64,000 nucleotides of DNA from Kiritimatiellia bacterium. GTDB taxonomy: Bacteria > Verrucomicrobiota > Kiritimatiellia > RFP12 > UBA1067. Where the stretch lies: positions 10,012 through 74,011 of the forward strand of contig JAZQOS010000021.1 of the NCBI GenBank assembly GCA_045627925.1, read 5' to 3'. Positions 17,458-46,117 of the stretch are shown one piece after another. The notes below the pieces were generated by a model. That model saw only the letters and a program-made list of their open reading frames with translations. It was not told the origin of the DNA and searched no databases. The stretch's first letter is position 1. Every line of letters begins with the position of its first letter. Both the position numbers and the translations under genes were made by a program.

Positions 17458-18261
17458 TTAGGCGACTTCCTCGCCGCCCTCGACCTGCACGTTCCTGAGA
17501 CCGTTCAGAATCTCCATGGTCATCGCCGTCATCTTGAGGACGAGGCGGTTGGCCTTGTTGCGCAGCGAATAGAACACGGCCACCGACGGAATCGAGACGA
17601 TGAGGCCCGCCGCAGTCGTCCAAAGCGCCTGGCCGATCGAGCTTGCGAGCGCCGCCGCGTCTCCCGCGCCGCCCGAAGCGAGCGCCTGGAAGGTCAAAAT
17701 CATGCCCTGCACCGTACCGAGCAAGCCGAGCGAAGGCCCGAGGTTGCCGCAAACCGCAATCCAGTTGAGCCGCTGCTGAATCTTCTCCTGCTCGAGATCG
17801 GAAGCCGCGGTAACCGCCTCCTGAATCGCCTCGAAGCCCTCTTCGATGTGCTGGAACGCCGCCATCACGATCGACGACATCGCCGACGGATTCTGCTGGC
17901 AGACGTCCATCGCCCTTACGACGTCACCCTCGGCCATCGCCGCCTGCACACCGTCCAGAAGGCGCTTGGGCATGAGCTTTTCTGGCTTGATGAGAACCGA
18001 CGAGTCGATCGAGAAGTAAATCGCGAACGCGCCGTCGCCGAAAAGCGCGAGCCACAGGAGCATGCCGACAACGCCCGAACCGAAGACGATGTCGTAGAAT
18101 CCGCCGCCGCTCTTTTGCGTAGTGTTGGCCGCGTCGCTCGAAACGACGTTACCGTTCGCGTCGGTGATTTCCTGACCGAACGAGGTGAGCGCCGCCATCG
18201 GCGCGACCGCGGTACCGACGAGAATCGCCGCCGCCATCAATGATTTCCTGATTTTGTTCAT
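17458..18261 (-). CDS. exbB: MotA/TolQ/ExbB proton-channel protein
   Basis: 267 aa. The C-terminal core GNLGPSLGLLGTVQGMILTFQAL...ALWTTAAGLIVSIPSVAVFYSL is the MotA_ExbB channel signature. It has an N-terminal signal-like segment plus an extra periplasmic region. Confidence 0.9.
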   Translation of the reverse strand: MNKIRKSLMAAAILVGTAVAPMAALTSFGQEITDANGNVVSSDAANTTQKSGGGFYDIVFGSGVVGMLLWLALFGDGAFAIYFSIDSSVLIKPEKLMPKRLLDGVQAAMAEGDVVRAMDVCQQNPSAMSSIVMAAFQHIEEGFEAIQEAVTAASDLEQEKIQQRLNWIAVCGNLGPSLGLLGTVQGMILTFQALASGGAGDAAALASSIGQALWTTAAGLIVSIPSVAVFYSLRNKANRLVLKMTAMTMEILNGLRNVQVEGGEEVA

Positions 18262-18301: not shown

Positions 18302-19072
18302 TTACATCGCCTTCGCCTGCGACCGAAGCTTCTCTGCGCGACCCGCCTGACCGCGCTTGTCGAAGCAATCCGCCGCCTTGGCCATCGCCTCGGCGCGTTC
18401 GCTCGCGCACTCCGGATCGTTGTACATGAGAACGACCCTCATATACCCGTCGCGCAACGCCTGTTCGAGTCCGTCGCTCGAGCCGTTGGTGTCCGCGACG
18501 ATCATATCTCCGCGCATCGTGAACGCCGCCGCCGAGGACTTGCGGTCGCCTTGCGAAATCGCCTTCTTGACGAGCGTATCGAGTTCGGTGCGCTTGCCGA
18601 GTTTCAAAAGCGCCTTCCAGTAGGCGGGAGCCATCTCGCCGGAGTAGGCGGCGCTCTTGTCGTCGCCGATTACGCCCTGACAGACGTCGTACGCCTTCTT
18701 CGCGTCGCCGGTCGCGAGATAGGCGAGCGCGAGATAACGCGCCGCCGGACGATCCCACTTCAGCATGCGATAATCGTCGACGATCTTCTTCAAAGCCCCG
18801 ATCGCGCTCGAGCCCTGCCCCGCCTCGACCTGGGCGATCGCCTTGTCGAGCGCGGCCGGCTTGGCGACGTCGAGCGAAACGACGTCCGCGAGCTTGATTT
18901 CGATATCGACCATCGTCGAACCCTTCTTGAGCGAGACGACGTATTGCTTCGTCCGGCTTTGCCACTTGATCTCGCCGGTGCTGGAATTCGCCTCCGTCGA
19001 AATCGTCCCCTGAACCGCCGAGGCCGAAGCCGTGGCGAGCGCGACAAGCGCCAATATCGTGAATTTGCGCAT
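18302..19072 (-). CDS. Secreted helical-repeat (TPR-like) protein, function unknown
   Basis: Start re-set to ATG 19072-19070 (MRKFTILALVALATASASAVQG signal peptide). TAATG overlap with the upstream TPR gene. The C-terminal half is alpha-helical-repeat-like. Confidence 0.6.
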   Translation of the reverse strand: MRKFTILALVALATASASAVQGTISTEANSSTGEIKWQSRTKQYVVSLKKGSTMVDIEIKLADVVSLDVAKPAALDKAIAQVEAGQGSSAIGALKKIVDDYRMLKWDRPAARYLALAYLATGDAKKAYDVCQGVIGDDKSAAYSGEMAPAYWKALLKLGKRTELDTLVKKAISQGDRKSSAAAFTMRGDMIVADTNGSSDGLEQALRDGYMRVVLMYNDPECASERAEAMAKAADCFDKRGQAGRAEKLRSQAKAM

Positions 19073-22000
19073 TATGGATTCTCCTTCTTGGGTAGAGCCG
19101 CTCCCGGCAGTTCCGCCTTGGCGCGGTTCATGCAGTTGGCGATTTCCGTTCTCGCCTTGCCGTTCGGGAATTGTTCGAGATATTCGCCGCCGAAGCGAAG
19201 GACGCGCTCGGCCTGCTCCGCGCCCATCTTGGCGAAGAGCGGTACGATCGTTGCGTAGGCGCGCTCCAGATTCTCGAGCTCGCCCGCGCTCATCGCGGAA
19301 AGCGGACGCTCCTCGCTCGCGCCGTGCGACTGGATGAACGCCTGGAAGGTCGAGGCCGCGCGTCCGCACGTTTCCATCGCCTCTTCCTTGAGATTCATCG
19401 CCTCCTCGGCCTTCATCCGATCGATGAGCACGTCGCCGGAAAGTAGATCGATCTTGTCCTGCTCCCACTGTTCGCGCGTCTTCCAGTACTGGCGAACCTT
19501 CTTGATCGCGCCAATCGCCGCGCCGAAATACTTGCCGCGCTGAACGGCGTCCTTCTCGGAGCGGCCCTGCGCGCTCGCGACCTCGACGAGCAGGAAGTTC
19601 GCGTCGGCGGCGATCATCATCTTCGCCATCTTCTTATCGCCGAGGAACTTGTCGAGCGCCTCGCGCGCCTCGGCGAGCGAACCCTGCTTGAACGCGCTCT
19701 TCGCCTGCCCGAGCCGCGCCCGGGCGACGACCGAAAGCTGATTGGTGCCGGCGAGCTTGATCGCCTTGTCGAAGGCGCGACCGGCGAGCTCCCAGTTGCG
19801 CGCGTCGATGAGCGCCTCGCCCGCGTTCTCGTACTGGAGCGCGGAATACGCACCGTCGGTACCGAGCATCTCGGCGTAAATCTCCGCGCCTTCCTTCTTC
19901 ATGCCGATCTCGATCAGGTTCTTCGCGAGCCGCGGCTTGGCGTTCTTCGCCTCATCGGAATCGGGGAAGCGCTTCGAAAGCGCGTCCAGCGCGTTCTTCG
20001 ACTTCTCCACGTCGCCGAGCGCGGTGTAGATCGTGCCGAGCTTGACGTAGCCGAGCTTCGAGTACTTGCCGTCGGGATAGGCCTCGAGATATTCCTCGAA
20101 GCTCTTCGCCGCCTGCTTGCGATACATCTCGAGCTTGGACTCGGGCCGGTTCATCCGACTCCAGCACTCGCCCGCGAGGAACTTCGCGCCCTCGGCGAGT
20201 TCGACGAACTTCTTCGCCTCTTCCTGGGAAAGCGAAGCGTCCTTGGCCATTTCCGCCGCCTTGCCCGAGAAGTCGTTGAATTGCTTGACCGCGCGGATGA
20301 TTTGCGCCGTGCCGCGCTTCTCCGCCGCCTCGATCGCCTCCGCCGTTTCATTAGTTGAAGCCGCCGCGAGAATGTCGAGGCCGTCGTCCTTGTAGAGCTG
20401 GGCGAGCGACATCTGCGCCTGAATGCGGTGGCGCGGGTTGGTCTCGAGTTCGACGTAGCGGTTCATCGCCGCGATCGCCTCGGCGCGATCGCCGAGCTTG
20501 TTGTAGCACTCCGAAAGCTGCGCGAAGCTCGTCGCGTAGTAGACCGAATTCGAGTAGTATTCGCCGACTAACTTCCACAGCGCAATCGCGTCGTCGTAGC
20601 GCTTCTCGCGCTGCGCCTCGCCCGCCAAGCCCGCCGCGGTCTGCGCCGCCGTCGCATGCTTGCGGTAGTTGACGACGAACGCCTTGCGCAAGCGGTCGCA
20701 CCGCGCCATCTCCTGAAGATCCTTTTCGCGCGCCGCTACTCTCAAAAGCGCATCGCCCGCCGCCAGCATCATGAGCCGCTTCGCGCCCGCGAACCGCTCC
20801 GAGAGATACCCTTCGATTACGTCGGCGTCGGCGCGCAGCTCCTCAAGCCGCTCGCCGCCCTTCTTGGCGAGCTTGAATTTCAGAATCTGCTCCAAGTGGG
20901 CGTAAATAAGGTTCTCAATTCCGCCGATCGACTCGGGGCATTCGGGATAGCGCGAAAGAACATCGTACCCTTCCTTGATCGCGCCCTCGAAATCGCCCTC
21001 GGAGAAGCGGTCGGACGCGACCTTGAACTGCATCGCGCGAACCTTGGCGATCATCTCGGGCGTGACCTGCGAAGTGATCTTCGCGCCGTAGGTCTTCTCG
21101 GCGAACGCCTTGATTTCGTCGGCGAGTTCGCCCGCGTTCGCCGCCCAAGTGGACTCGGGATAGCGCAAGAAGACGTTGAGCGAGTGGTTGTAGGCGCCCT
21201 GACCGTTGCGCTTGCCGTTCGCGAGCTTCTCGCCGAACATGAGCGACTTGATCTTCTCGTCGTCCTTCTTCGGTTTTTTGGACTCGGCGAGCGCTTCGTC
21301 CCACATAAGCCGCGCCAAAAGATAGCGGCACTGCGGCATCGGCGAAAGCCGGAGCATGCCCTTGCGCCCGTCGGGGTCGATGGCGGCGATGGACTCGTGC
21401 AATTCGCCGAGCTGCGGTAGGTAGTCCTCGAGATATCCCATCGCCCGGTCGAGCCGTCCGCGCAAAAGCTCGATGTGCGACTTCATATTGACCGCGCGGC
21501 CGAAATAGACCGACTGCTCGGGATGCTTCAAAATCTTGTCGACGATCTTCTCCGCCGAATCGAGATAGGGAGCGCGCTTCTTCTGGTCGGCGACCTCGCT
21601 CGCGAGCTTGAGCTGAAGTTCCACCGTCTCGCACCCCATCATGCACCACTGCTGCGTTTCCAACTCCGGCTTGAGATTAAGGAGCCCCTCGTAGACCTTC
21701 ACCGCGTCGGCGAAACGCTGGTCGCCGCAGAGAATCTGGCCCCAGGCGAAACAGGCGTTGATATAAAATACGCGCAGCTCCTTCTTGGGGCTCGCGAACT
21801 TCTTGAAGAACTCGTCGTAGATTTTCTTGCACTCGTCCTTCTTGCCGACGAAATTGTAGCGATTGGCGAATTCGAGCCGCGCCGCCCAATACTTCGTGCT
21901 GTTGCGGTCGGGCAAGGCGCCGATCTTCTTCTCGGCCTCCTCGAACTTGTTCAGCGCGAGTAGCGAACGAATCTCAATCGCGAAAAAGCGAACGTCCGCC

Positions 22001-22191
22001 TCCGGCCAACGCTTCTTCGTCGCCTCGATTACGGGAGAGGCGAGATCGGGGTACCCCGAATCCACCAACGCCTCCACATAGGCGATTTCACGTTCGAGTT
22101 CGGGGTCCTCCTGCGGTTCCTCCGCCGCGGTCTCGGCGAAAACCGAACCCGCCGCGATTAGCGAAAAAACCAACGCAAGCTCTAATCTCAT
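19072..22191 (-). CDS. Large secreted TPR-repeat protein (1039 aa)
   Basis: Signal peptide MRLELALVFSLIAAGSVFAETA, then many TPR-like repeats rich in A/Y/L/K/E. First gene after a consensus promoter. Confidence 0.75.
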   Translation of the reverse strand: MRLELALVFSLIAAGSVFAETAAEEPQEDPELEREIAYVEALVDSGYPDLASPVIEATKKRWPEADVRFFAIEIRSLLALNKFEEAEKKIGALPDRNSTKYWAARLEFANRYNFVGKKDECKKIYDEFFKKFASPKKELRVFYINACFAWGQILCGDQRFADAVKVYEGLLNLKPELETQQWCMMGCETVELQLKLASEVADQKKRAPYLDSAEKIVDKILKHPEQSVYFGRAVNMKSHIELLRGRLDRAMGYLEDYLPQLGELHESIAAIDPDGRKGMLRLSPMPQCRYLLARLMWDEALAESKKPKKDDEKIKSLMFGEKLANGKRNGQGAYNHSLNVFLRYPESTWAANAGELADEIKAFAEKTYGAKITSQVTPEMIAKVRAMQFKVASDRFSEGDFEGAIKEGYDVLSRYPECPESIGGIENLIYAHLEQILKFKLAKKGGERLEELRADADVIEGYLSERFAGAKRLMMLAAGDALLRVAAREKDLQEMARCDRLRKAFVVNYRKHATAAQTAAGLAGEAQREKRYDDAIALWKLVGEYYSNSVYYATSFAQLSECYNKLGDRAEAIAAMNRYVELETNPRHRIQAQMSLAQLYKDDGLDILAAASTNETAEAIEAAEKRGTAQIIRAVKQFNDFSGKAAEMAKDASLSQEEAKKFVELAEGAKFLAGECWSRMNRPESKLEMYRKQAAKSFEEYLEAYPDGKYSKLGYVKLGTIYTALGDVEKSKNALDALSKRFPDSDEAKNAKPRLAKNLIEIGMKKEGAEIYAEMLGTDGAYSALQYENAGEALIDARNWELAGRAFDKAIKLAGTNQLSVVARARLGQAKSAFKQGSLAEAREALDKFLGDKKMAKMMIAADANFLLVEVASAQGRSEKDAVQRGKYFGAAIGAIKKVRQYWKTREQWEQDKIDLLSGDVLIDRMKAEEAMNLKEEAMETCGRAASTFQAFIQSHGASEERPLSAMSAGELENLERAYATIVPLFAKMGAEQAERVLRFGGEYLEQFPNGKARTEIANCMNRAKAELPGAALPKKENP

Positions 22192-22200: not shown

Positions 22201-22229
22201 ATTATACTACAATACCCGCGATGGGTCAA
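22201..22229 (-). promoter_or_regulatory. Sigma70-type promoter for the TPR-ExbBD operon (TTGACC-N17-TATAAT)
   Basis: The reverse strand reads cTTGACCcatcgcgggtattgtagTATAATttcatcatcATG. The -35 is at 22229-22224 and the -10 at 22206-22201. Only 9 nt separate the -10 from the ATG at 22191. Confidence 0.55.
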
Positions 22230-22252: not shown

Positions 22253-25200
22253 TTACTTGACGATGATTCTCGGGGCGAGGCGCGCCGGACTACGAAGAGT
22301 AAGCGCACCGCCTTCACCGATCTTCAAGCTGCAACCCTTCGGCAAGTTGATAGGCTCAAAGCGCGCCAGGTCATCCTCGGTAAAGGTCTTGCCGGTAATG
22401 AGCACGATCGAATTGCCGCGTTCAAGTTCCACGCCGCTCAAATCAATCTTAATCGTACCGGTTTTGGGGAAGATAAAGTCCGCATCATGGCCCAACGTCA
22501 ACGTTTCGCCCGAAACCGCCTTGATAATCGCGCCTTCCGCAAGCGAAATCTTCGCCGTAATAGAGCCCTTCGCCAAAAGCGCACCGCCCGCCTCGACCGT
22601 AAGCGGCGCGACGCGCGAAGCCGTGCCACCATAATTACCGCTTGTCGAGCTACCACGTACGGACGCAACATTCACGAATTCATTGCCGTCTGTCGAAACC
22701 TCCACATCCCAGTCAACGGGCAACCCACCCCAATTCGTATCCGCCGAAGTGAATCTATAGTCCGTGAACATATCAATTGGATTGTTCTTGAAGTCAATCG
22801 TAACATACAGCTTACGATTTGCCATGTCTGCGACAGACATAGAAAGCGAACTCCCTTGATCAATCCCAAGCGAAACTTCTATCCAACTTGGATCGCCGGA
22901 TGATAACCAATCGGAAATCCCTATGGATCCACCTTGCGTTGTCCCCGACGAGCTAGTAATCGACGCCCTGGCAAAGACACTATTTAGATTCTCCCCATTC
23001 CGCGAGAAACGAAGACGCGAGAGATGAACTTTATTCCCACTTGAAGTCTTGAGGAAGTAGATTCTAACATACCGAATCTTAGAACTATCGGCGAGCGAAG
23101 TTGCGCTGAAGGTCGCGCCGCTTTCGATTGTAATCCCGGGCACACTCACCACCCCCACATCGAAATTACCGCGCCCAATGGCGAACTTCAATGTCGAAAC
23201 CGTCGCCAGCGCCGGCAAGGTCGTAACCGGAGACCCGGAATCGTTCGCATAGACGATGGTACCGCCGCCGCCGATCTTCGAGTAGTCGAGATTGGTCGTC
23301 CATCCGTCATTATCTACGGAGATTTCCAACCGCCCGCCCGCCTGAATCTCCACGGACTTGTTCCTGAGCGCCCATCCGCTCGCCGTCGGCACGGTCACAA
23401 TCGTCGCGCCACCTTCGCAAACGAGCTTCGCCACCGTCACGCTCGCATTCGCGGGAATCGTCATCGATCCGCTCGCCAGTCGAATGGTCGCTTCGGAGTT
23501 ACAGGCGAGAATCGCGCTGTCCACCGTCTTGCCCGCGCCCGGGTCGATGACGACCGTGCCGTTGCCCTCGATGGTTCCGCCCCACGGCTCGGAAAGAACG
23601 GCGGTATTGCCGCTTTCCACGGTCAGTATGCCCGTGCCGCTCTTCATAAGTCGCGTATAAGTACCGGCGATAACGTGCGCCTTGCCGCAAGCGAGTTCGT
23701 AAACCACGCTACCGGGGAAGCCGGAGAAGTCGAGCGTCTGCGCGTCGATGGTATGTTCGCCGTCGCTCACGAAGGTGATGTCGCTGCCGCTTAGCACCTT
23801 GCTGTCGTCCGCCATCAATCTATCGCAGACAACGTCGGCGTCCACGGTAAGAATCGTGTTCTCGCTCGGATCGAGCTTGACGTCGACGGCCGCCTCCAAC
23901 CGCTTTTCGCTCCACTTGCCGTCAAACGCGACCAGCTCGCCGTCCTGCGTGTACTTCCATTCGGCGGTATCCCAATTCACCTCTCCGCCAAACGCCAGCA
24001 CATACGGTCCGCCCATGTTGTCGCCGGAAACGACCGCAATTTTCCCTCCCTCAAGATATCGAAGTGAGGCAAAAGCGTCCAACGGTTTAAAACGATAGAG
24101 ATCGGCAAAGGTGAAGTCGGACTTGACGATTATCGTTTGCGGCTCGTCCCCGAGCGTAAGCGCGCTCGTGTCGAGCGCAATCGGGTTTTCGGGGAAGTTC
24201 ACCTCCGTCTTCTCCAAGCAGTTCATCGCCTTGCCCTCGACCGCCTTGATGATGGCGCCGTCGTCGAGGGTGATCGCCGCCTCGATTGCTCCCTCGGCCA
24301 AGAGCGTACCGCCCGAGCGAACCCCAAGCGCGGATACAGGAACCTTGGCGAGCGAGGCGCCAAAATTCTGGTTGTTGTTGTTAATCCACCCGCCGCCTGC
24401 CGCCGTATTGGGCGCTTGGCCGCTTACCGTCGAAACCGTGGTCCAGACGGAGCCATCGTAGGAAACTTGCACTTCCCAACTCCTCGGTGTCCACCAGTTG
24501 GCAAGGGTATCGCCTGCCTTGCGACAAGAAGCATAAATGCCGTAACGGTCGAACATATCGCTCGGCGTATTAAGTTCAATGGTAATGTAAACCTTGCGCG
24601 CAGCCATATCCTCCGGCGTGGCCGAAAGCATACAACAGGTATCGTAAAGACCTCTTGACGCGTTGGTGTTGGCAGCTCCGTTAAACAACATACCTACATT
24701 GCCATTGCGATATCCGACGGAAGCGGAAGAGCTCTTGATGTTTCCGCGAATAACTTCCGAACCATTGGCGGAGAAGCGAATTTCCTCCATGCTGACGCCA
24801 TAGTATCCGGCTCCATCGCGACTGCCCGCCTTGCCGGAGTCGCTTTGCTCGAGGAAATAGAAGCGGATAAAACGAATCTTGTCGAAGCGATTGGCAAGCG
24901 AACTCGTGCCGAAAGTCGCGCCGTCGTAAACCCGCACCTCGCTCGTGTTGAGCGCGAGCGCCGCGTTGTCGTCGTTGATTTCCAGTTTGCCGCCCATGAC
25001 ATGCGTCGCACCCGGCACGTGTACGGGGAGCTTGAAGTCGAGGAATCCTCCCGAATTCAAGCTATTGAGGACGAGCGACGCCGCATCATCGGCCTTGGTG
25101 AAAGTATAGGTCGATTCCGTGTTCGCAAACGAACCGAACATCACCGTCCGCATACCCGAAACGGCAATGCCGAGATTTTCGCCCTTCTCGGGGAAATAAA

Positions 25201-28200
25201 CGCCCAGACCGTCGGTAAACGCCCTCGTCGTTTCTCCCTGCTTCCAGTTCTGCGCCTCCGTTGACCAAACCGCGCCATCCGCGCCATTCCAAGTAAGCAC
25301 CTTCGCGGTATCGAAGAAGGAGCCGTCCTCGCCGGCGACGCCGCTGACCGGCGTATCGAGATTGCCGACGTAGAAGCTCGCACCGTTGTCGATCAATTTC
25401 GCACCGACGAGCGGAGTGATCTGGTAAGTGCCGGTCGCATTCTTCGGGAGGATCACCTTGGTGCCGGCGTCAAACACAAGCTTCTTGACATTCGGAAGCG
25501 GCAGCGCGGCGAATTCCACCGTAATCTCGGGCCCGATTTCCACCTCGCCCGCGAGAGCGTTCGCGTTCTTGACGAGCACCTTGCCCGAACCGGTGAAAAC
25601 GAGCTTGCCCTGATCGCGATCGACGAGCGTGGCGTCAATCGTCAAGACCGAATCGGCGGCGAGATCGACCGTTGTCGTACCCTTAAGCGCGATTGCGCCC
25701 TGATTGATCGTCGAGAGCTTGGAATTCCCCGAAACCGAAAGCGCCAGCTCCGATGTCGCCGAAGTGCCAAAGCTAAAAGTCTGCGTCCGCTCGACGCGCA
25801 ATTCGCCGTTATTGAGCGCCAGTGGCAATTCAAGCGCCTCGAAACTCTTCTCCTCGCTCAGACCGATGTTGGGATTGATGCCGATTTCAAGCCGCCCGTT
25901 TTCAATCGTGCCGAAGGTTTCGGCGGTTGCATCCTTGAAGGCGTTGAAAGTTTCGAGCCGAAGATCCATATCGACTACCGAAAACGGCAGAAATCGCGCA
26001 AGCGCGCCCGCGGTATTGCTTCTAAGAACATTGCCAGTGAGGTGGCCGCCTTGCGGAACCTCGAAAGCGAGATTGTCGAAGTCGAGCCACGCCCCCGCCT
26101 TGTCCGAATAAAAATCGAGAATCGCGTTCGAGCCCGCCATCGTCACCGTTCCGACGTTCGTCATCTTCGCGATGTAGAACTTCTGGTCGCCCTCGAAGCG
26201 AACATTGCCCTTTTCTTCGGTGAACTCAAGTCCGTTGTGGCCGACGCCGCCGCCCGTGGCAAACGTCACATTTCCACGATTAACCAGAATGTCGGTCGTG
26301 AAGCGCGCCACTCCCTCGCCCGTCAACTTGAAGGTCGCGCCAACGGGCTGCTCGACGACGAGCTTCAGCGCCGCGATTTTGTTCGCGCCGACGTTCATCG
26401 TAAGATCACCGGTCGGTGCAATCGACGCGGTGTTCGCATGGTCGTAAACGCAAGGGAAGCCATTGGTTGTCCACAAGGAGTCGGTGAGATTCCAGTTCGC
26501 CTCGCCCGTGGTCGCTCCCACCCAAACGTAGTCCTCGAGCGCATAGGGCTCGGGCAATGGATCGCCGTAGGCCATCGGACACGCCCAGCACCAGCGACCG
26601 GTTCCCCAGTTCCGATGATTCGTATAATTCTGCAACATGTAGAGCCACGCGTCGCCCGGTCCGCGCTGCGCCCCGTACGGCTCGCCCCAACTCGTTTCGC
26701 CCAAATATCCGCGCATATAGAGCATCTCCAAGCCAATGCAAAGTCCGTCGCCGCCGGGCAAGCCGCTCATGGCGCTTCCGCCCCAAGTCGTACGCGTGTT
26801 GCCGACGGTGAAGACCGCGCCGCCATTCGGGTTTTCAATGAGCGAATCGCAGTTACACGCCTTGATGTAGCCGCTCGCGTTGGAGTTTCCGGTCCAATCC
26901 GGACATCCGGTAAGGCAAGGCCCGATGGCGATGAACGCACGCATGAGCGCGGACATGTTCTGCGAGCTCTCGTTCATAAAGCTATGATTCGCCATACCCG
27001 CTTGCGAACCGTGACCATCGGCGAAAACAAGTTCCCAATCCTGACTGTGCAACGAATTGATCGCCGACTCGTGATTGGCGAATTTACCCGACCAAGTCGT
27101 ATCGGTCACCATCTCGTTATGCGTAATTGGCGAGTACTTTCCCATCAGCTCGCGCATAATGAGCGAAGTCGGATACTCCGAGTCCGTCCAAGTCGGACCG
27201 TGAGCGGTGTCGTAGAGGTTCATCGCGCCGGTGTAAAACTCCATTTCGTTGCGAAAAACCAGATTGTGGGAAAGCGCCGGATAACCGCCGACTTTTTCCG
27301 CGACGCCGACGAACTTGCGTCGCCCGTCGAAAGTCGGAGTGTCGACTCGACGAACCTTGGCGAGATAGTTCTCGACCGTCTTCGCGTAAGTTAGCGTATA
27401 AACGTCGCTTCGCCAATCACAATCGCACTTGATCGGAATTCGCGTCACGACCACATCCGGCATAAGGTCGATCCAACCGTCCGGCTCGTTGGCGTAGATT
27501 CCGTCGCCTTCGGAGTTCTGTTCGGTATTGCTACCGGCATCCCACGGATACTTCGAGCCCTCGGGTATGTCACAACAGGCGTAGAAGACATCGGAAGGAA
27601 CCGGCGAATCCGACGAACCGAAGTGCGTATCGCTCCTGGGGATCGTATAAATGCCCGGCAGCGCGTTATCGGGCCCGGCGACGTATTGTTTCTCGGGAGT
27701 GGTGATGGTAATATTCTTGCGCGAAGTCGTCGGCTTACCGTTCGCCGGACAGCCGTGCGCGTCGTAAAACGCACCCGCGAGCACGAAGTAGTGCGTACCC
27801 TTCTTCGCTTCCCGACTGATGTAGGCGTGAAGCCGCTCCGCGTCGTTACGCGCGTAATACCCTAAAGTCGAATCGGTCGTGTTGACGGGAAAGTCGGCGA
27901 GAATATCCTTGAAGTTGACGCAGGCGAAAACCATTTCCGGGTGATCGGCTGCGCGCGCGGCGACGTAATCCTCCCAAATCGAGATGTACATGTTCGGCGC
28001 GATGAGGATGTAATCCGGCTGATTCGGGTCGTCCTTTACGTAATCCACGTGCTCGCTTTCGGCTACCGCCATCGTCTGCATCGGCACGAGAAAATTCGCC
28101 TTGACGGTAAACCGCTTCGCCGCCTCGACCTTGCCGTTCGCGTAACGGAACGGCGTTACCTTTACTTGCAACACCTTCACGCCTGCACGAGATTGGACGG

Positions 28201-28597
28201 CGAGCGGAGTGATGTTGGCGCGCGGCCACGCTTCGGCGTAAAGCGCTTCGTCGGGCGGCGTGAACGGCGGATTGACAGTCGTCGTCAAATGCGGCTCCTG
28301 CACCGGCTCAATCTTCACCCCCTCGCCAATCGTCGCCCATTCGGCTTCGAACTCGCAACCAAGCAACTTGCCGCCCTTCGGCACGGTAAAGGTAACGAAC
28401 GTTTCCGGCAAGTTGGGCGCGCCAATCGGCTCCACCGCCGAATCGAGCCCCGGATAGACAATCGCCGAATAGCCGGCGTATTTGCTCTCGACGATTTGCG
28501 CTTGCGAGAAATCTCCGGGAAGCGTAATGGCGAGCGTATCGCCAAAGGCAAACGCGCTAACGCCCAAGACCAGTGTTGCGAATAAGAGCCGTTTCAT
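22253..28597 (-). CDS. Giant secreted peptidase C25 (gingipain)-like protein with beta-strand-repeat region and two discoidin-like modules (2114 aa)
   Basis: Signal peptide MKRLLFATLVLGVSAFAFG and an N-terminal propeptide-like beta-sandwich. C25-like core (YILIAPNMY...HYFVLAGAFYDAHG...DVFYACCD...VVVTRIP) with ADGHGS His and GPCLTG Cys. Long G/T/N/V-rich repeat region follows. Two modules start IRFIRFYFLE / IRYVRIYFLK. The protein ends LAPRIIVK. Confidence 0.85.
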   Translation of the reverse strand: MKRLLFATLVLGVSAFAFGDTLAITLPGDFSQAQIVESKYAGYSAIVYPGLDSAVEPIGAPNLPETFVTFTVPKGGKLLGCEFEAEWATIGEGVKIEPVQEPHLTTTVNPPFTPPDEALYAEAWPRANITPLAVQSRAGVKVLQVKVTPFRYANGKVEAAKRFTVKANFLVPMQTMAVAESEHVDYVKDDPNQPDYILIAPNMYISIWEDYVAARAADHPEMVFACVNFKDILADFPVNTTDSTLGYYARNDAERLHAYISREAKKGTHYFVLAGAFYDAHGCPANGKPTTSRKNITITTPEKQYVAGPDNALPGIYTIPRSDTHFGSSDSPVPSDVFYACCDIPEGSKYPWDAGSNTEQNSEGDGIYANEPDGWIDLMPDVVVTRIPIKCDCDWRSDVYTLTYAKTVENYLAKVRRVDTPTFDGRRKFVGVAEKVGGYPALSHNLVFRNEMEFYTGAMNLYDTAHGPTWTDSEYPTSLIMRELMGKYSPITHNEMVTDTTWSGKFANHESAINSLHSQDWELVFADGHGSQAGMANHSFMNESSQNMSALMRAFIAIGPCLTGCPDWTGNSNASGYIKACNCDSLIENPNGGAVFTVGNTRTTWGGSAMSGLPGGDGLCIGLEMLYMRGYLGETSWGEPYGAQRGPGDAWLYMLQNYTNHRNWGTGRWCWACPMAYGDPLPEPYALEDYVWVGATTGEANWNLTDSLWTTNGFPCVYDHANTASIAPTGDLTMNVGANKIAALKLVVEQPVGATFKLTGEGVARFTTDILVNRGNVTFATGGGVGHNGLEFTEEKGNVRFEGDQKFYIAKMTNVGTVTMAGSNAILDFYSDKAGAWLDFDNLAFEVPQGGHLTGNVLRSNTAGALARFLPFSVVDMDLRLETFNAFKDATAETFGTIENGRLEIGINPNIGLSEEKSFEALELPLALNNGELRVERTQTFSFGTSATSELALSVSGNSKLSTINQGAIALKGTTTVDLAADSVLTIDATLVDRDQGKLVFTGSGKVLVKNANALAGEVEIGPEITVEFAALPLPNVKKLVFDAGTKVILPKNATGTYQITPLVGAKLIDNGASFYVGNLDTPVSGVAGEDGSFFDTAKVLTWNGADGAVWSTEAQNWKQGETTRAFTDGLGVYFPEKGENLGIAVSGMRTVMFGSFANTESTYTFTKADDAASLVLNSLNSGGFLDFKLPVHVPGATHVMGGKLEINDDNAALALNTSEVRVYDGATFGTSSLANRFDKIRFIRFYFLEQSDSGKAGSRDGAGYYGVSMEEIRFSANGSEVIRGNIKSSSASVGYRNGNVGMLFNGAANTNASRGLYDTCCMLSATPEDMAARKVYITIELNTPSDMFDRYGIYASCRKAGDTLANWWTPRSWEVQVSYDGSVWTTVSTVSGQAPNTAAGGGWINNNNQNFGASLAKVPVSALGVRSGGTLLAEGAIEAAITLDDGAIIKAVEGKAMNCLEKTEVNFPENPIALDTSALTLGDEPQTIIVKSDFTFADLYRFKPLDAFASLRYLEGGKIAVVSGDNMGGPYVLAFGGEVNWDTAEWKYTQDGELVAFDGKWSEKRLEAAVDVKLDPSENTILTVDADVVCDRLMADDSKVLSGSDITFVSDGEHTIDAQTLDFSGFPGSVVYELACGKAHVIAGTYTRLMKSGTGILTVESGNTAVLSEPWGGTIEGNGTVVIDPGAGKTVDSAILACNSEATIRLASGSMTIPANASVTVAKLVCEGGATIVTVPTASGWALRNKSVEIQAGGRLEISVDNDGWTTNLDYSKIGGGGTIVYANDSGSPVTTLPALATVSTLKFAIGRGNFDVGVVSVPGITIESGATFSATSLADSSKIRYVRIYFLKTSSGNKVHLSRLRFSRNGENLNSVFARASITSSSGTTQGGSIGISDWLSSGDPSWIEVSLGIDQGSSLSMSVADMANRKLYVTIDFKNNPIDMFTDYRFTSADTNWGGLPVDWDVEVSTDGNEFVNVASVRGSSTSGNYGGTASRVAPLTVEAGGALLAKGSITAKISLAEGAIIKAVSGETLTLGHDADFIFPKTGTIKIDLSGVELERGNSIVLITGKTFTEDDLARFEPINLPKGCSLKIGEGGALTLRSPARLAPRIIVK

Positions 28598-28609
28598 ATT
28601 TCCAATTCC

Positions 28610-28644
28610 TTACTTGACGATGATTCTCGGGGCGAGGTGCGCCG
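28610..28644 (-). pseudogene. Orphan remnant of a paralogue 3' end (encodes ...HLAPRIIVK-stop)
   Basis: 34 of 35 nt are identical to 22253-22287, the last codons plus stop of the 2114-aa gene. It lies in the 77-nt spacer between the 1248-aa gene stop and the 2114-aa gene start. No ORF body is attached. Confidence 0.7.
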
Positions 28645-28674
28645 TGTCAAGTAAGCGCACCTCACAAGCGCGTC

Positions 28675-31600
28675 TTACCTTACGGTAATCATTGGTGCAC
28701 GGTTAAAGCGAACAAGCTGAAGTTCACCATTCTCGCTCAAAACCAACCGTCTACTTCGTCCAACGACCTCAAACTTTGCTAGATCGTCTTGGGTAAAGAC
28801 AACGCCCTTGATTACCTCAATTGGCGCGCGATTTTCAGAATCCAAACCATTTGCATCAATCTTTACCTTACCGGTATCGGGAAGCGTAACTTTCGAGCCG
28901 CTTGCAAGAGTCAGCGACTTACCATCCGTCGCCTTCAAAATCGAATCGGCCGCCAAAGTGATATTAGCCGTAGCATTTCCTTGCGCAACCAATGTTCCTT
29001 CCTCCGCAACCAAAACTTCCGCCTTGGAAAATGCAAGGCCAAAAGCAGTCGAACTATTACCATACCACATCTCGCCAGTGCCAGCAGCTGGAACCGCTCT
29101 GCCCGAGACCCTGCTTACCGTCACCCAATTGACTCCATCTGGGCTCACATCAACCCTAAAATCGGTTAAGCTTTCGGTGTTGTGCGGAGAAGTGGCCGCG
29201 GATGCCGCAAGGCCATAACTCGTCGGCATTGGTTGAGGTTCGCTAAACACATACTCAAGATAGAACTGCTCCTTGGACAAAATATCGCTATCGTTCGCCG
29301 TAATGGTACAATGACTATCCGAACCGGTAAATGAACCGCTAAGTCCACTCGCATCACCATCGCGCAAATATCCCTCATTCGAAACAGACCCCAAGCTCGA
29401 AGGATATGAGACTTTGAGATTGGCGCTGGCACCTTTGGGCAATAGCGATCCGGCGGAAGTATTGAATCGCAATTCCAAAATTGAAACAATGTTACCATCG
29501 CTATTCGTCCTGATTGGATAGAAGCGAACTCCTTTAATCGTCTCGATCTTGTTAATAATTTCGTCGGCCGCAAAAACCGCACCATTCTGGATATCAAGTC
29601 GTGGAACGCTCACCGAATTAAGCGCAACATCGCCTCCCGACACCATCATTCCGTTTGGCGCGTTCACCTCGTTCTCAAATATAACATCCTCGGAAAGTGC
29701 CGCGCTGCCGATAGTAAGCGGCTCGCCGGTAAAGCGATAAACCGAGTGCTGATTGCCAAACGCCACAAAAGCGCACGAAAGCGCATTAGGCAAATTAACC
29801 GTAACTTCCTCTGCGTTCTCAATATCCGGGAAATAATACTTGCCGTTCCCGCTTTGAGTATCCGTCCAATCGCCCGACGCCTGATTCCAAACGATAAACT
29901 TCGAAATATCAAAGAACGCGCCGGATGTCGCCCGTCCTTCAACTGGCGTATCACCGCCTAATTCAAAAACTTGCGCTCCCTCTTCAAGATCAAGGACCGC
30001 CCCGCTCATTGAAAGAATATTGTAAAACCCTTCGGCGCTTGGCGGAATCACTAACTTCGAATTACCGTCAATCGTAAGTTTCGTAACATTGCGAAGCGGT
30101 ATTTCGTTTAAGATTAGCGTTCCCGAATTAACCGTAACTTCCCCGGCAATGCTAATATCCGTTTCAACCGACGTGCTTCCGCCCTCGATGACAATTTTAC
30201 CTTCCGTCGTTTCGTCGGCAACCATTGACGCATTGAAAACAAGGTTTGCCTCGTTTTCCAAGGTAAACGTCGTCGTGCCAAAAAGCGTCGCCTTGCCACC
30301 ATTCACCGTTTCCACCGACGAGTCACCGCTCACGCCAACTTCAAGCCCGGAACCATCGGGACGGCCAAAGCCGGCCGTCGTTGTCCGATCAACATAAAGC
30401 GTACCATTGTCGAGCGCAATCGAACCCGAAAAGTATTCCCAGCAATTGGCAAGTCCGTAATTGGGGTTAAAGGTAATTCCGAGCCCGCCGTTCTCAACCG
30501 TCGCAAAACCGCTCTCGAGGTTGGCGTCCTTAAACGCATTGACCGTTCCCAGCGCAACGCAAGTATTCTCAACTGCAAGAGGCAAAAAGTCCTTGAGCTG
30601 CCCTTCCGTGCGTCCACGCAGAATATTGCCTTCGCACATAGTATTTCCTTCGCCAACCAGAGTTAGCGTCGAGAACTTCGGCGCTGCGGTGTCGAAGTCT
30701 AGTGTCGTGCCATTACCCGCAAGCGCGACTTCGCTTGCACCCGTCGGCTGAATCATATAGGCCTTAGTTGGCGAAGCGACGGTAAGAACGCCACTCCCGC
30801 CGGCGAAATTGACGCCCTCCCCGCCAACGCCGCCGTTCGCCGCGAAGCGAAGCGTCGAGCCATCCGTTACATTAAGCTTGGTCATTACCTTAAAGATGTT
30901 GTCGCCGGTAATTGACGTCCCGCCCTTCACGTTAAGCGTCGTATAACCCGTGTCTTCATCGACCGCAATCTCCGTCTCGTTCAAGGTCGTCTCGGGAATG
31001 GCGATTGATATCTTCATTAGCGGATCGCCATAAAGAATCTGCTCGACCATGCAAAAGCGAGCAGTTGTTCCGGTATTGCCGCAATACCTCTGACGCGCAT
31101 CCAACCAAGCCGATCCGATATCCATATCCTTTTCAAAAACCCCTTGCTTCATATAGTACTGGAGCGAGCTCGAAAGGCCGTCGTCATCAATCGACACATT
31201 ATTCGTACCGAAGCCATAACGCGAATTGTGAACGCTGGCGACCGTGCCGCCGTTTAGCGACTCGATTTCGGCTTCGGCAAGCGTCATGCCCCCGCCGTCA
31301 ATATGTCCCGTCATGCATGAAAAACCCGAAAACACAATCTTCGTTATACCACTTGCCTTAAGGTAGTTGTTTACATTGATGTACTTGCAGTAAAGATCCG
31401 CAGCCGAGCCGTGGTCACGATATTCAACTGCTTCACGATCATGGGCAAAATAATGAGCGGCCGCTTCTTCGATAGTGGCATGGTCCGCTCCCCACCCGTA
31501 AACAAAAAGCGGATTGCCCTCGAGAATCGGACGGCGTGGCGCAATCATATTCTTTACCGTATTACGCGGCAGCTCTTCCGCATCAATCCACTTGCCGCCA

Positions 31601-32968: not shown

Positions 32969-35900
32969 TCATTTCACGATAATCCTGGGGGCGAAGTGTG
33001 TGCGAGTAAGTTTAAGTGAACCATCCTCACCAAGGACGAGCCGATAACCAGTTTTATCGGCAAGAACCGTGAACTTCTTCAAATCATCTTCGGTAAATTT
33101 CTTGCCACTAATAAGGTCAACGGTCTCGCCCACACCTGCGCTAACTGCGCCACGAACATCAATCGTTACCGTGCCCGATTCAGGGAGAATAAGGTTGGAG
33201 TTGCCAACGAGCGTCATCGTCTCACCGGCGGTTGGCTTAATAATTGCACCATCTTCAAACTTAACAATCGTTTCAAGATTGCCCTTTGCCAAAAGTGCAC
33301 CGCCCGCAGCAATCGTCAAATCCGCTGGCTTGGAAGCTCGGAATGCTCCGCTATTTCCGCCGCCCATCCAATTCCACTGGCCCGAGGCGGTCGTATTCCG
33401 AACCGAAGAGACGAGCACATAGTTCACTCCATCTTCCGACACCTCCATATCCCAACTGGTGGGACAATTGGCTTGGGGGCCAATACCCATTGAGTAGTTA
33501 GAGAACATTGATAATGGAGATTTAAGTTCTATGGTTATTGTAGCATTACCAGGGATAGTTGCTGCTGCTCCATTCCACATCTCATTAAAGAAATCAGTAT
33601 TAGGATTATCCACTAAATAACCAAGATTTGAAGACCCAGAAACATTGCAAGTAACAGTTGAATTCTTGAGACTCTGGAACTGATTATTTCGCCTTACACC
33701 AATCTCTGCAATTTTCAATGTCTTTCCTGAATTCAAGAACTTCATCCGCAAATACTTGTACTGTCCATCGGTATTGCCGACGGAATCTGCCGAGAACTCA
33801 GCGCCTTCGGAGACAACGATTCGCGCGGCGTTAAGCGCGACCTCCAATTCCGAAGAACTTGTTAAGTTATAGACGCCATCGCGCATTACAACTGTCATTG
33901 TGCCAGGAATCTTTCTCCCAAGCGTCGTCAGCGCACTACCGGTCTTGTTTTCATAAACAATCGAACCGCTACCACTGATTTTGTTGAACGAGACGTTCGT
34001 TCCCCAATCCGCACTATTGATGTTAAAGATAAGTTCTCCGCCTTCGCGAATTTCGAGCGTCTTGTTGGAAAGCACCCAGCTCTCCGACGTTGGCGTCGTT
34101 ACAATCTTCGCGCCACTGCCACACGAAATACGGTTCACGGCAATTGAAGTCCCCTCGGGAATCGTCATCGTGCCGCTCATAAGTTCAACCGTCAAGTTGC
34201 GGTTCAGCGCAAAAATGCGCATATCGTCCCAGCTATTTCCCTCGCCCGGGTCGAGCACAATCGTACCGTTGCCCTCGATAGTTCCATCCCACGGCGCGGA
34301 AAGAATCACCGTATTCATGGTATCGACCGTAAGGACTCCCCTTCCGTTTCCGGAAAGCCGCGTCATCGTGCCCGCGATAACGTGTGCATCTCCGCAGTTA
34401 AGGCCGTAATCGACCTCGCCGGTGAAATCGGAAAAATCGAGCGTCTTCGCGTTAATCGTATGCGTACCGTCGTCTACGAGCTTGAGTTTGTATCCGCCAA
34501 CGTATTTCAAGTCCGTCGCCCGCAAGGTATCGCAGATGACATCGGCGTCCACGGTAACAACTGCGTCGGCGCTCATATCAAGCGCGATGTCAACGTTCTC
34601 GTCCAGCGACTTCTCGCTCCACTTGCCGCCAAACGGCTTGGTTACGACCTCGCTGTTCTCGTCGTACTTGATTTCGCCGTTTTCGTCGTAATCGATGACG
34701 CGCCAATCGTCGGTGTCCCACTTCTCGTTCTCCGTGCCTGCGAAGGTGCGCAGATACGGCGCGACAAGTCCATCGCCTTTTACCACCGAGATAACTCCGT
34801 CGCGGTAGCGAAGCGACGCATTTTCATTATTCGGCTTGAAGTTGTAAAGCGAGTAGAAGTCGAGGTTGCCGCCGCTCACAATCGGCTGCGGCGTAGAAGT
34901 GAGCGTAAGGTCGCTCACATCGACGATTACCGGCTCTTCGCCAAACGACCAAACCGTATTTTCCGCGCATTCGAGCGACTTCCCGTTAACCGCCTTCAAA
35001 ATCGAACCGCTCGCCGCCTCGATGTTGGCGCGAATCTTGCCCTCGGCCAAGAGCGTTCCGCCTTCGCGCACTTCCACCGATGCCGGTTGTTCGCCGGACG
35101 AGCCCGCGCGAAGCGCTGCTTCGCCGCTCTTCTCGTCGCCACCGACCCAGCCGCCATACCAAAAGCCGGAGTTGCTGTTGCTGGTGCGGGCGACCGTGGT
35201 CCAGTTAATGCCATCAGCCGACACATCCACGCGGAAGGAAGTCGGCCGATAACCATCCCACGAACTCCCGGTTTCCGCATTGTACGTCTTCGATGAAAAA
35301 ACACCGAAACGATCGAATACGGGCCTCGGCTCCCTGAGCTCGAAGGTAACATACAATCCCTCGCCCGCCATCACCGCTGCACTCCCGTAGAAATAAACGC
35401 TATAGCCATCATTACCGCCAGTGGAACTCGAAGCGTTATAACTTCCATCGTAAAGCCGACCGAGGTTCGATGTCGAAACCGAAGACGAAACACTTTTGAC
35501 ATTGTTCGAAAGCAGTCGCGAGGTGATATTGCCGTTCGCGTCAACGTTCGAGAAGGAGATTTCATCAATCTTCACGCCCTCGTGCGGCACATTGGCCGAG
35601 TTGCGTTGGGCGAGGAAGTAGATGCGAATATAACTAATCTTGTCGATGATAAAGCCCGTCGAGCTCGCGCCGTATTCCGCGCCATCGTAAATGTGAATTT
35701 CGCGCGTATTCATCGCCGGCGACTTCGCGTCGGTATTAACCTCCGTCTTGCCGCCCATTACGTGCAATGCGCCGGAGCTACTGACTGGCAAATTAAAAGT
35801 CACGTCGCCGCCGATGGAAAGCCCTTGGAAATTAAGCTTTGACGTGGCGTCATTCGGATTGAAGACATAGGCGCTATTCGCGTTTGCGAACGAGCCGACA

Positions 35901-40587: not shown

Positions 40588-40674
40588 TTTCAAGCTTCCT
40601 TTTTGCAGACATAGACAAATCTACACTTCGCCAATTCTATGACCTATACGCTCCCCTCGCGAGGAACAGAAAGT

Positions 40675-41073: not shown

Positions 41074-44000
41074 TTACTTGAATATAACCTTCGTCTTCTT
41101 GGCCGGGCCGCGCCAGTTGAGGTAGTTGTTGCTTATATCCGCCGGCATTACCATGCGCTCCGCAGTATTGCCGTCTGGATCCACGGCGACCAATTTCACC
41201 GCCTTGCGCTTCAACGTTCCCGTCACCGGGCAGATGGCCGATTTAGGAATGTGAAGATCGTTTACCGAGAAGCGAATTTCGCCCGCCTCGCCGACGTCGT
41301 AGCGCATTGTCGCATCAAACTTGACCTTCGCGCTCTCCATAAGATTCACCATTCCCGCGACTCGCCCGCTTAACGGAGACGTCGATCCATTCGCCATCGT
41401 AAGCTCCGCATTCGGTCCGAGGATAACGAGCCCTTCATTCACCAGCGTTCCCGTCCAACGACCGTTAAGTTCAAGTACGCCGGTTCGATCCACCGTAAAG
41501 GTATGGTTCCACGATGCCGCCCACTCCGGCCAAGTCGTCGTACCGCTGAAAATGGGCTGGCCCGTCGGACATTGCCCCGTATAGATAAGCCGTGCATTGA
41601 CCGAAGAGTTTCCTTTAAGAAGGTATTCGTGGAAGGTTCCCATGCCCGTCGAAGAAAACCGCAAGTATTCGCCAATTCCCGACCACTCCGTCGTTTTCGT
41701 CTGGGTGATCTCGTAAACCACTTTCGCCCAACTCGCATTGTCGCCCGGTTCGATACCGATTTGCGCGGTACCTTCGAGATTCTTGAAGCGATAGGTGTAA
41801 GTCGGCGCTTCATACGACGAGCCGCTGCCATGGAACGGATAGAGAAGTTCCACATACGCCGCAAACGAAAGCGACTGCGACCAGGTGTTGTTCGGCGGGA
41901 AGATGCGATACTTGGTGCCGTTGTCGGACGCGAAGACGAGCTTGCCGTCGCCTTTGAGCCCGCCCCAATTCGACGCATTCCAGAAATTCAGGTTCCGCGA
42001 GAAGACGACGGCGAATTCCGAGCCGTCGTTGATCGTAATGCCCTGCGCAATATTCTTGGCGGGCGATGCGACTTCGGCAAGCGGATACTCCGTCCGCGCA
42101 CCCGTATCGAGGGTAACGGAGCCCGTTCCCGAAACCGCGTCAAGTCGCGGCAGAATATCGCCGACAACCACGAGTTTAACTCCATCTACGACGAGCGTCG
42201 AAGGCAACACGAAGTTCGATTCCGCAACCGCCTTAACGGTCAAGGTGCCAGATCCTTCAATCGTCAACTTCACCTTCGGCGCGGCATTAAGGGCAATCGT
42301 CGCATTGCCCGAGACCGTGAGCTTCGCCTCCTCGACCGAGTTCCAGTCCGGGATTGTCACGGACTCGTTCGCGATGTTCTTCCAATTGAGCGCGGCGAAA
42401 GAGGCCGTTCCGCCCGTTATTGCTGCGGAAAGTCCTCCCAAAGGACGCGAGCAAATCAGATGCGCGGCTTCGTCATAATAGATTTCCACCGCCGTATCGA
42501 CCGCTCCGCTCTCATTCACGGCAACGAATTCGAAGCCGCTCATCGGCGCATCATCCATGTGGAAAAGTTCATTCTTGTTCGCCTTAAGCAATGTATTGCG
42601 CAAATAAACAACGCCCTGCGACAAAGAACTGAAGCCCAGCGAACAATCAAGCGGATCTTCAATAGTGAGCACATCGCCCGCATGCATCACCATAGTCGCG
42701 TTCTTAACCGTCCTTATGGTCATGTTTGACGACGCGTGGATCGTCCCCACAACCTCCAAATCCCTAAGCGCGACTTCGCCCGTCAAGGCCGTAAAGTCAA
42801 CGTCAACAACCTCCAACGCGCCAACCTCATTCCCTTCCAGTACGAGATTGCCTTCACCCGTGAAAGCGACCAACTTAAGCGCAATCGGCGTATCGACCGA
42901 AAGCGTGGTGTCGCCCGCGATGGTCACGTTTGCGGACGCAGTCATATCGAGATCGGACTCGGACCACTTTTCCGTAAAGCCGTCCCAATCCGCCGTATCC
43001 CAAGCGGCGGTCGAGGTGGAGATCGTCCGTGTGTAAGGCCCTTTCCGGAGCCCGGTGGGCGCGGCCAGTTGCAAAGAGCCGTCTTCGCCGATGCGCAGGA
43101 CAACCTCCTTATCGAGCACCGTGAAGTCCGCGAGTTCCGCCGCCGTCCACCGATGGGCGTCGCCTCCAATAATCGTCATTGGCTCGTCCGAGAGGAATCT
43201 CTTGATTTCGGATGCGTCGATAAAGACCTCGCCCTCCCATGTGAGCGTTGTGCCCAGATGCCATGTCATCGAGACTGGGCATTCCTCCCAATCGTCAATG
43301 GCCGCTTTGAGAACCGCGCCGTCGCGCAGGACGATATTCGCCTCTGGCTCGCCCTCAAGACGGAACTTGCCGCCACGTTCGACGACCACATCCGGGCATG
43401 TCAAAACGTCCGAGCAACCAAAGTCGCCGGTGATGACGAGCTTATTGAGATTAAGCGGCAGCCAGAATTGCGTATCGCCGACAATCGCGAAAGCATCGGA
43501 GGTAATCGACGCCGCCTTGTCTTCCGTATAGCTATTATCGTAAAAGATATATTGCGTTTCGCTGTTGGCGAAAAACGAAGGCCCGAGTTTCAGTCCACCC
43601 AAAACCGGCACCACAAGGGGATTTTCCGGCTGATTCGGGAAGTAGTACTTCGCGCCAGCGGGAATCTCCTCGGCACTGAGTTCGTATATGTCCGGCAAAA
43701 GCGTAATGACTTCCGGATCGGCCAACTTGACATTATCCCCCAGCTCAATCGCACCCGCGATGGTGGAGCGGGAGAAATCGACCTTGGCGGGATTTGCCGC
43801 CGTCGCTTGGGGCGAGCGGAAGACCAGCTTGCCGCTGCCCGAATCCTTAAACTCCGCAACCATCGTAAAGGTCGTACCGGGGTCAAGCGTAATGGTCGTC
43901 GTTCCCTTGAGTCCGAAAACACCGCCGTCCGCCGACTCAAAGCGATTGCCGTCGCCGGTCGAGGTGATGACGAGCGAATCCAAAACGGCTTCGTTGGTGT

Positions 44001-46107: not shown

Positions 46108-46117
46108 ATCCTCGGTT

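Follow-up and report, generated by a model that had tools for sequence, protein, structure and literature searches.

A shared short C-terminal tail on giant secreted proteins of Kiritimatiellia as a candidate sorting or anchoring signal

In type IX secretion (T9SS), the segment known as motif C-t contains a conserved Lys, and replacement of its last residues blocks secretion (PMC11285876); in Tannerella peptidases, this motif reads K-L-I-K-K-COOH (PMC11285876). For Kiritimatiella glycovorans, the first cultured member of the Kiritimatiellia, only Sec, Tat and type II secretion (T2SS) were reported, and no TonB-dependent receptors (PMC5148204). Here we describe a 64,000-nucleotide stretch of DNA from a gut Kiritimatiellia bacterium (contig JAZQOS010000021.1, positions 10,012 to 74,011; hereafter the window, G+C 57%), in which four giant minus-strand open reading frames (ORFs), G1 to G4, form a single cluster and end in a common short tail, A-P-R-I-I-V-K-COOH or a variant of it. 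The observation of a shared tail, made in a preliminary description of the window, is confirmed and strengthened by our analysis, which establishes the motif itself, shows that it is specific in position, portable between domain contexts and associated with giant proteins bearing signal peptides, and documents the selection acting on it and the lineage in which it occurs. The proposal that it serves as a sorting or anchoring signal is better grounded than before and is plausible. Kiritimatiellia, including groups from the gut of herbivores, degrade complex glycans extracellularly, and the Sec, Tat and T2SS genes are, to our knowledge, all that has been described of how their very large enzymes and adhesins are delivered to the surface or retained there.

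Each of the four proteins starts with a typical N-terminal Sec signal peptide. G1 (22253-28597, minus strand; 2114 residues) continues with a Peptidase_C25 domain and beta-rich regions and has two copies of a module, one internal and one terminal, ahead of the tail; G2 (28675-32421, minus strand; 1248 residues) continues with a Peptidase_C25 domain, a terminal module and the tail. G3 (32969-39502, minus strand; 2177 residues) is a paralogue of G1, 45% identical to it across the full length, and likewise ends in a terminal module and the tail. G4 (41074-46146, minus strand) has 1690 residues as listed from a TTG start, but translation probably begins 13 codons downstream, at the Met of MRKAF...; it carries Peptidase_C25, an internal copy of the module near residues 906-1033 and the tail. 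The scores for Pfam PF01364 (Peptidase_C25) were 49, 72 and 59 bits for G1, G2 and G4, compared to a curated cut-off of 23; the score of G3 was under the reporting level, and its C25 His and Cys columns are nonetheless kept. All four window proteins and their relatives keep the catalytic columns (HG; C-x-TG), and the cargo proteins, as distinct from the tail, belong to the gingipain-like peptidase family C25. Pfam and NCBIfam searches with the full G1-G4 proteins returned nothing besides C25 and weak discoidin matches.

The translated ORF ends match those of the preliminary description exactly. The tails of G1 (22256..22276, minus strand; stop codon 22253-22255) and G3 (32972..32992, minus strand; stop 32969-32971) are both A-P-R-I-I-V-K, that of G2 (28678..28698, minus strand; stop 28675-28677) is A-P-M-I-T-V-R, and that of G4 (41077..41097, minus strand; stop 41074-41076) is K-T-K-V-I-F-K, following a C-terminal region unrelated to the module of the other three. 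In longer context, the proteins end in ...ALTLRSPARLAPRIIVK (G1), ...ELQLVRFNRAPMITVR (G2), ...SLKLTRTHFAPRIIVK (G3) and ...NWRGPAKKTKVIFK (G4). As had been noted before, the tail has no transmembrane stretch: within the last 60 residues, apolar runs reach 4 residues at most, and Kyte-Doolittle values (19-residue window) stay below 1.

Across the related proteins, the tail follows the consensus [A/P]-P-[R/K/Q]-(I/V/L)-(L/I)-(V/F)-[R/K]-COOH. Among 34 non-redundant tails, numbered back from the C-terminus, position -7 is A or P in 20, position -6 is P in 16 and position -5 is R or K in 18; I, V or L at -4, L or I at -3 and V or F at -2 precede R or K at -1, which is always basic in the selected set. 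Since positions -7 to -5 played no part in selecting the sequences, their conservation is independent support for the motif. Of the occurrences of the pattern P-[RKQ]-h-h-h-[KR], where h is a hydrophobic residue, in 214 non-redundant proteins (172,713 residues) drawn from the window, the collected loci and the profile matches, 16 lie at the exact C-terminus and two are internal, an enrichment of about 6,000-fold at the exact C-terminus within this set. Crude ORF calls over all loci include 33 signal-peptide ORFs of at least 600 residues, of which 17 bear the tail, compared to 5 of 118 other ORFs; among these five, a tRNA synthetase matches by chance, and several represent giant genes cut short.

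A basic last residue is also what would be expected if the tail protected the C-terminus, with the terminal Lys or Arg evading periplasmic tail-specific proteases and PDZ stress sensors and so stabilising long proteins during slow export. Such proteases and sensors prefer apolar or aromatic C-termini, and Lys and Arg swap freely at the last position, as between G4 and its relative P0026. This explanation accounts neither for the hydrophobic triplet, the P at -6 and the R or K at -5 nor for the restriction to one cargo class in one lineage, and we regard it as highly improbable.

The preliminary description had placed a conserved module upstream of the tail in three of the four proteins, and alignment bears this out for G1, G2 and G3, with a length of ~120 residues. 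Together with the tail, the aligned terminal module (AGGALLAKG...GAIIK...FTEDDL..., ~121 residues in G1) spans 22256..22618 in G1, 28678-29028 in G2 and 32972-33334 in G3, all on the minus strand; the C-terminal region of G4 is different, yet the tail is present. The module had no Pfam or NCBIfam match. Word-index homologue searches with the C-terminal 159 residues of G1 and with a 10-sequence module alignment gave only two short fragments each, and an exhaustive search of 1.84 billion representative proteins with a profile of the ~121-residue terminal module plus tail matched 44 proteins. The terminal copies cover profile positions 1-121, while the internal copies end at 113 or earlier and thus have no tail. 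Conversely, of the 31 proteins in which the module match lies more than 100 residues from the C-terminus, 12 still end in h-h-h-[KR] (binomial P ~1e-27; background 4-mer frequency in the same proteins 0.12%), with ends such as ...SPRIIVR, ...HPPRIIIR, ...VPRVLFR, ...GGKLLVR, ...AIKLLVK and ...RPLLFFIK. In the AlphaFold2 model of the G1 C-terminus (whole-model pLDDT 74), the module is beta-rich with pLDDT 80-90, and the last 12 residues form an unpaired extension with pLDDT ~65. A Foldseek search of this model against the PDB gave no match at E <= 0.001 and, among the top matches, no T9SS-type C-terminal domain with the Ig-like 3+4 beta-sandwich fold solved for RgpB, PorZ, PorU and HBP35.

One possibility raised earlier was that the tail is no more than the final strand of the folded module before it. 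This is disfavoured, because the internal copies end before the tail, the model leaves the tail unpaired, and the tail stands behind many unrelated domains and cargo and is almost exclusively C-terminal; it is more than the terminus of the ~120-residue module. A purely structural role could take another form, in which a terminal strand, or a hairpin with a preceding G-x-L-x-L strand, caps a beta-rich domain or mediates oligomerisation by strand swapping, and has spread as a C-terminal mini-module by domain shuffling among paralogues with no part in sorting. In line with this, many carriers have a longer pattern (F-x-V/L ... G-Y-x-L ... D-G-x-L-x-L, then 3-8 residues and the tail), which suggests a unit of ~40 residues rather than 7, the composition is typical of a beta-strand, and most carriers are beta-helix or beta-sandwich proteins. 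However, the tail of P0030, a protein from a Kiritimatiellia metagenome-assembled genome (MAG), lies ~20 residues past a LamG domain without the hairpin pattern, the tail is unpaired with the module in the G1 model, and the internal module copies do without it. Moreover, a capping strand would not need the exact C-terminus, the P at -6 or the basic residues at -5 and -1. We therefore consider a purely structural role unlikely.

Selection on the tail is visible in the comparison of paralogues. The tails of G1 and G3 are identical in 7 of 7 residues and differ synonymously in 5 of 7 codons, which shows that the tail is conserved at the protein level and not through recent gene conversion; a DNA or RNA element in place of a protein motif is ruled out by the same five differences. 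P0026, which is 88% identical to G4, ends in AKKAKMLFR, so that KVIFK and KMLFR differ by conservative swaps, and the residues directly upstream of the tail diverge freely. By these substitution patterns, the tail is under purifying selection.

The preliminary description had also reported an orphan gene-end remnant, and this was confirmed. The remnant encodes HLAPRIIVK-stop at 28610-28639 (minus strand), in the gap that separates the G2 stop from the start of G1, and has an exact block of 29 nt in common with the 3' end of G1 (CCTCGCCCCGAGAATCATCGTCAAGTAAG). The spacer (28609-28650) consists of G1 3'-end material in rearranged form: past the G2 stop come a post-stop element of the G1 type (GACGCGCTTG[C/T]GA[A/G]GTGCGC...TTGAC) and then the 29-nt tail remnant. 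The second hexamer of a sigma-70-like site at 28650-28623 (TTGACA, 16 nt, GAGAAT; 10 of 12 matches) lies in the P-R-I codons of the remnant, which may have been retained as part of a G1 promoter.

The remnant shows past recombination or duplication of 3' ends, and it could be argued that the tail has no present function, being inherited in a fast-expanding paralogous family and homogenised by recombination between tandem copies. The four genes do lie in one cluster, and most carriers come from one broad family. The five synonymous differences between G1 and G3 speak against recent homogenisation, though, and the flanks diverge while the tail stays, in differing architectures and on contigs of 50% to 71% G+C. 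A tail devoid of present function is, in our judgement, improbable.

The tail is found on cargo well beyond the four window proteins. Most relatives of these proteins have a C25 domain in which the His and Cys columns are kept, and the tail is also carried by P0025, a protein of 2841 residues with a Pfam C10 peptidase domain, by P0007, a sulfatase and PATR protein, and by P0041, where it stands behind a discoidin-like region. PATR-only proteins with the tail include two adjacent genes at locus L023 of a Kiritimatiellae MAG, and neighbours in the metagenomic loci add BspA-type leucine-rich repeat (LRR), legume-lectin/PATR/DUF2341 and PPC-domain proteins; the contigs with such tail-bearing neighbours span the 50% to 71% G+C given above. 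One further tail-bearing match, from a Kiritimatiellae MAG, has the NCBI annotation of an autotransporter-associated beta-strand repeat protein. When one genome per species was scanned with the alignment of the G1/G3 family, full-length relatives were encoded at four loci, L003 among them, all in two Kiritimatiellia MAGs. P0010, a tail-bearing C25 protein, seems to have an additional stretch within its N-terminal ~150 residues that by eye resembles a C10/streptopain-type peptidase (GCVATAMAQ...), and some family members may combine two cysteine-peptidase domains.

This range of cargo bears on the idea that the tail is tied to protease domains, either as a C25 product mimic that docks in the active site for latency or head-to-tail assembly, or as a processing site cut after the R or K at -5 by C25 enzymes acting as sortase-like processors. 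The cleavage sites of gingipains lie behind Arg or Lys, and the T9SS sortase PorU belongs to family C25. The presence of C25 in all four window proteins and most relatives, the C10 carrier and the basic residues at -1 and -5 fit such a link. The tail also occurs, against it, on proteins without a detectable peptidase domain (sulfatase plus PATR, PATR-only, LRR and lectin proteins), and we rate a tie to protease domains as quite unlikely. Self-inhibition of C25 as a general role was downgraded on account of these carriers, with C25 enzymes as processors still conceivable.

The module-profile set indicates what can stand at the same position in other proteins. P0042 and P0021 end in the T9SS type A domain TIGR04183, and P0020 ends in a hydrophobic-plus-basic anchor. 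That a T9SS domain, a hydrophobic-plus-basic anchor or the short tail can follow related modules amounts to a choice of anchor and suggests that the tail occupies the position of a sorting signal.

Taken together, these features make it about an even prospect that the tail is a previously undescribed, lineage-specific and C-terminus-dependent export or retention tag on large Sec-exported proteins. Kiritimatiellia would attach it to diverse cargo, including C25 and C10 cysteine peptidases, a sulfatase, a lectin, LRR proteins and PATR beta-helix proteins. Sec would carry the protein across the inner membrane, after which a periplasmic or outer-membrane receptor would bind the exposed tail, probably as an added beta-strand, reading the basic last residue with the free carboxylate and, ahead of these, three or four hydrophobic residues that are beta-branched or aromatic. 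Binding would then commit the protein to export through the outer membrane or to retention at the cell surface. The tail would in this way take the place of the T9SS C-terminal domain or the PEP-CTERM-type anchor of other phyla, and would act like motif C-t but without the Ig-like domain of ~80 residues.

Several points weigh against an export or retention tag. The sequences were gathered through homology to the module or to C25, so that the enrichment figures are biased and not proteome-wide, and many carriers are paralogues in which the tail could be inherited. The AlphaFold2 model of G1 was built on a shallow alignment of 6 sequences, and that of the G4 C-terminus is uninterpretable (pLDDT 44). 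The neighbourhoods of the tail genes have no recurrent gene in common except the cargo. Finally, one subfamily has two extra residues past the motif (...SLKLLLKAN, ...SLKVMMKALK), and P0017 runs ~20 residues beyond it; a strictly free C-terminus may accordingly not be required.

The variant of this subfamily can be written S-P-R-S-L-K-(L/V)-(L/M)-(L/M/I)-(K/R), followed by extra residues (KAN, KALK, RAR), and its members are L010:7137-11201, L016:9419-15961, L017:159-7991, P0016 and P0017. A tail-like segment with 3-4 extra residues also ends two DUF3857/transglutaminase-core proteins of ~1220 residues (L006:17332-20988, ...NRTIVVRKERN; L012:545-4207, ...NRTITVRRIKN), which lie ~3-6 kb from C25 giant genes on two contigs. 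A second recurrent ending, with G/K-x-F/Y-Y/F-basic-V/I-x-V near the end, is found on further giant proteins secreted by the same organism or related ones (L001:1-2595, L006:12434-15688, P0019, P0024, P0028, P0032 and P0034), as in ...KAFYKVGVGK, ...SFFMKVKVK, ...RAFYLIRVTR, ...FYRFRVEFDLE and ...RFFKVGVRLP; no NCBIfam match was found in the three of these C-termini that were scanned (P0019, P0024 and P0028). In the window itself, the GH95 alpha-fucosidase (55838-58333, minus strand), which has a signal peptide, ends in ...KKITPTVIK, a borderline likeness (P-x-h-h-K) that could be chance.

Beyond the tag itself, it is possible, if doubtful, that the tail is the signal of an unrecognised outer-membrane export or surface-attachment pathway in Kiritimatiellia and perhaps in other bacteria of the Planctomycetes-Verrucomicrobia-Chlamydiae (PVC) group. 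Such a pathway would use a minimal tag of ~7-10 residues, free of a membrane segment, on dozens of giant exoproteins per genome, and the candidate readers would be a TPR protein or an ExbBD-energised system, or C25 domains as sortase-like enzymes. Genes of the former kind lie 3' of G1 on the minus strand. Immediately downstream of G1 is a gene for a secreted TPR protein of 1039 residues (19072-22191, starting at 22191), followed by a small secreted TPR-like protein (~18302-19096), ExbB (17458-18261), two ExbD genes (16951-17445 and 16539-16949) and, at the usual position of TonB, three paralogues (15210-16526, 13860-15203 and 11948-13444). This TPR-ExbB-ExbD-ExbD cluster is adjacent to the giant gene only in the window and in the near-identical MAG contig L003, which is syntenic with G1 and the downstream 1039-residue TPR gene. 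The three paralogues have an N-terminal membrane segment, an acidic and Pro-rich linker and a weak PA14-like domain instead of the TonB C-terminal domain, and two of them are near-identical tandem duplicates. A promoter-like site at 22201-22229 (minus strand; TTGACC, 17 nt, TATAAT; 11 of 12 matches) lies between the G1 stop and the TPR gene, and the TPR-ExbBD cluster may be transcribed independently of G1.

The window also encodes GH95, an alpha-N-acetylglucosaminidase, a lipid A acyltransferase, LolDE and ExbBD, genes that fit a Gram-negative, glycan-degrading Kiritimatiellia bacterium. Between G3 and G4 lies a small gene with a Bro-N domain (40057-40593, minus strand), a domain typical of phages and mobile elements, and at loci L001, L002 and L005, relatives of G1 and G3 are followed by Fic/DUF4172 and DUF3990/DUF3791 genes; the giant genes may sit in variable regions rich in mobile elements. 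An ORF of 687 residues at 51282-53345 (minus strand) combines YidC/60KD_IMP (79-264) with a CDP-glycerol glycerophosphotransferase (319-594), which reflects either a fusion of an unusual kind or a mechanical ORF call that ran two genes together.

If the tail is indeed such a tag, the surface and secreted proteome of this phylum would be predictable simply from sequence, and the tail would provide a handle for finding the machinery via phylogenetic profiling. If it also proves transferable, it would make a very small display or secretion tag. More generally, the bacterial C-terminal sorting signals would gain a type that dispenses with membrane anchor and folded signal domain alike.

Several known C-terminal signals were compared with the tail. 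The tags of LPXTG/sortase, PEP-CTERM/exosortase, GlyGly-CTERM/rhombosortase and MYXO-CTERM/myxosortase are like it in being short, lineage-restricted and C-terminal on many unrelated secreted cargo proteins of one genome, but they consist of a signature motif, a transmembrane helix and a basic cluster, whereas the tail has apolar runs of at most 4 residues. The preliminary description had kept the tail apart from PEP-CTERM, LPXTG, GlyGly-CTERM and the T9SS C-terminal domain, and rightly so: there is no NCBIfam sorting-domain match and no transmembrane segment, which places it outside MYXO-CTERM as well. When the last 140 residues of 8 tail-bearing proteins were searched, no Pfam or NCBIfam match was obtained at E <= 10 except LamG in P0030, while the same search detected TIGR04183 in the positive controls P0042 and P0021. 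The T9SS type A and B sorting domains (TIGR04183, PF18962 and TIGR04131) were detected neither in the full G1-G4 proteins nor in the last 140 residues of those eight.

Type 1 secretion does not match either, all four window proteins having N-terminal signal peptides and no RTX matches. The peroxisomal signal PTS1 (S-K-L-COOH), which is read by the TPR domain of PEX5, is similarly a very short motif dependent on a free carboxylate, and a TPR gene lies by G1; PTS1 belongs, however, to another domain of life and another compartment, and the TPR gene is not beside the other tail genes, so that this likeness is an analogy only. The beta-signal of outer-membrane proteins, which is read by BamA/Omp85, had been invoked in the preliminary description. 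Its logic does carry over, as a terminal beta-strand motif is required at the C-terminus, presumably for strand pairing; nevertheless, it ends in an aromatic residue and forms the last strand of a barrel, whereas the last residues of the four window proteins are K, R, K and K, and Pfam shows no barrel or autotransporter domain in them. Among distant proteins with the module, a few do have Y or W as the last residue (GTIFSVY, GTIFSVW). Given the basic end, the comparison with the beta-signal is weaker than that with motif C-t of the T9SS.

As for the T9SS itself, SprA/Sov, PorV, PorU and GldKLMN were not among the window genes scanned (64 kb plus fragments), and our literature search returned nothing relevant linking Kiritimatiellia with T9SS, gingipains or a C-terminal sorting tag. 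The tail differs from the T9SS signal in that it comes without the Ig-like domain of 70-100 residues, as judged by hidden Markov models and Foldseek, and sometimes stands ~20 residues past an unrelated domain; its lineage is the Kiritimatiellia, in the PVC group. The likeness of [RK]-h-h-h-[RK] to KLIKK extends over 5 residues only, which is too short to establish homology. The shared features are nonetheless several: both signals lie at the extreme C-terminus of Sec-exported proteins that are secreted or displayed on the surface, are often very large and include C25 peptidases; both are composed like a beta-strand, with basic residues at the end or close to it (RgpB ends in Lys), and have no membrane segment; and proteins with the same internal module bear a true T9SS domain in other lineages. 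By analogy, then, the terminal strand of the T9SS signal domains, motif C-t, appears to be the closest analogue of the tail.

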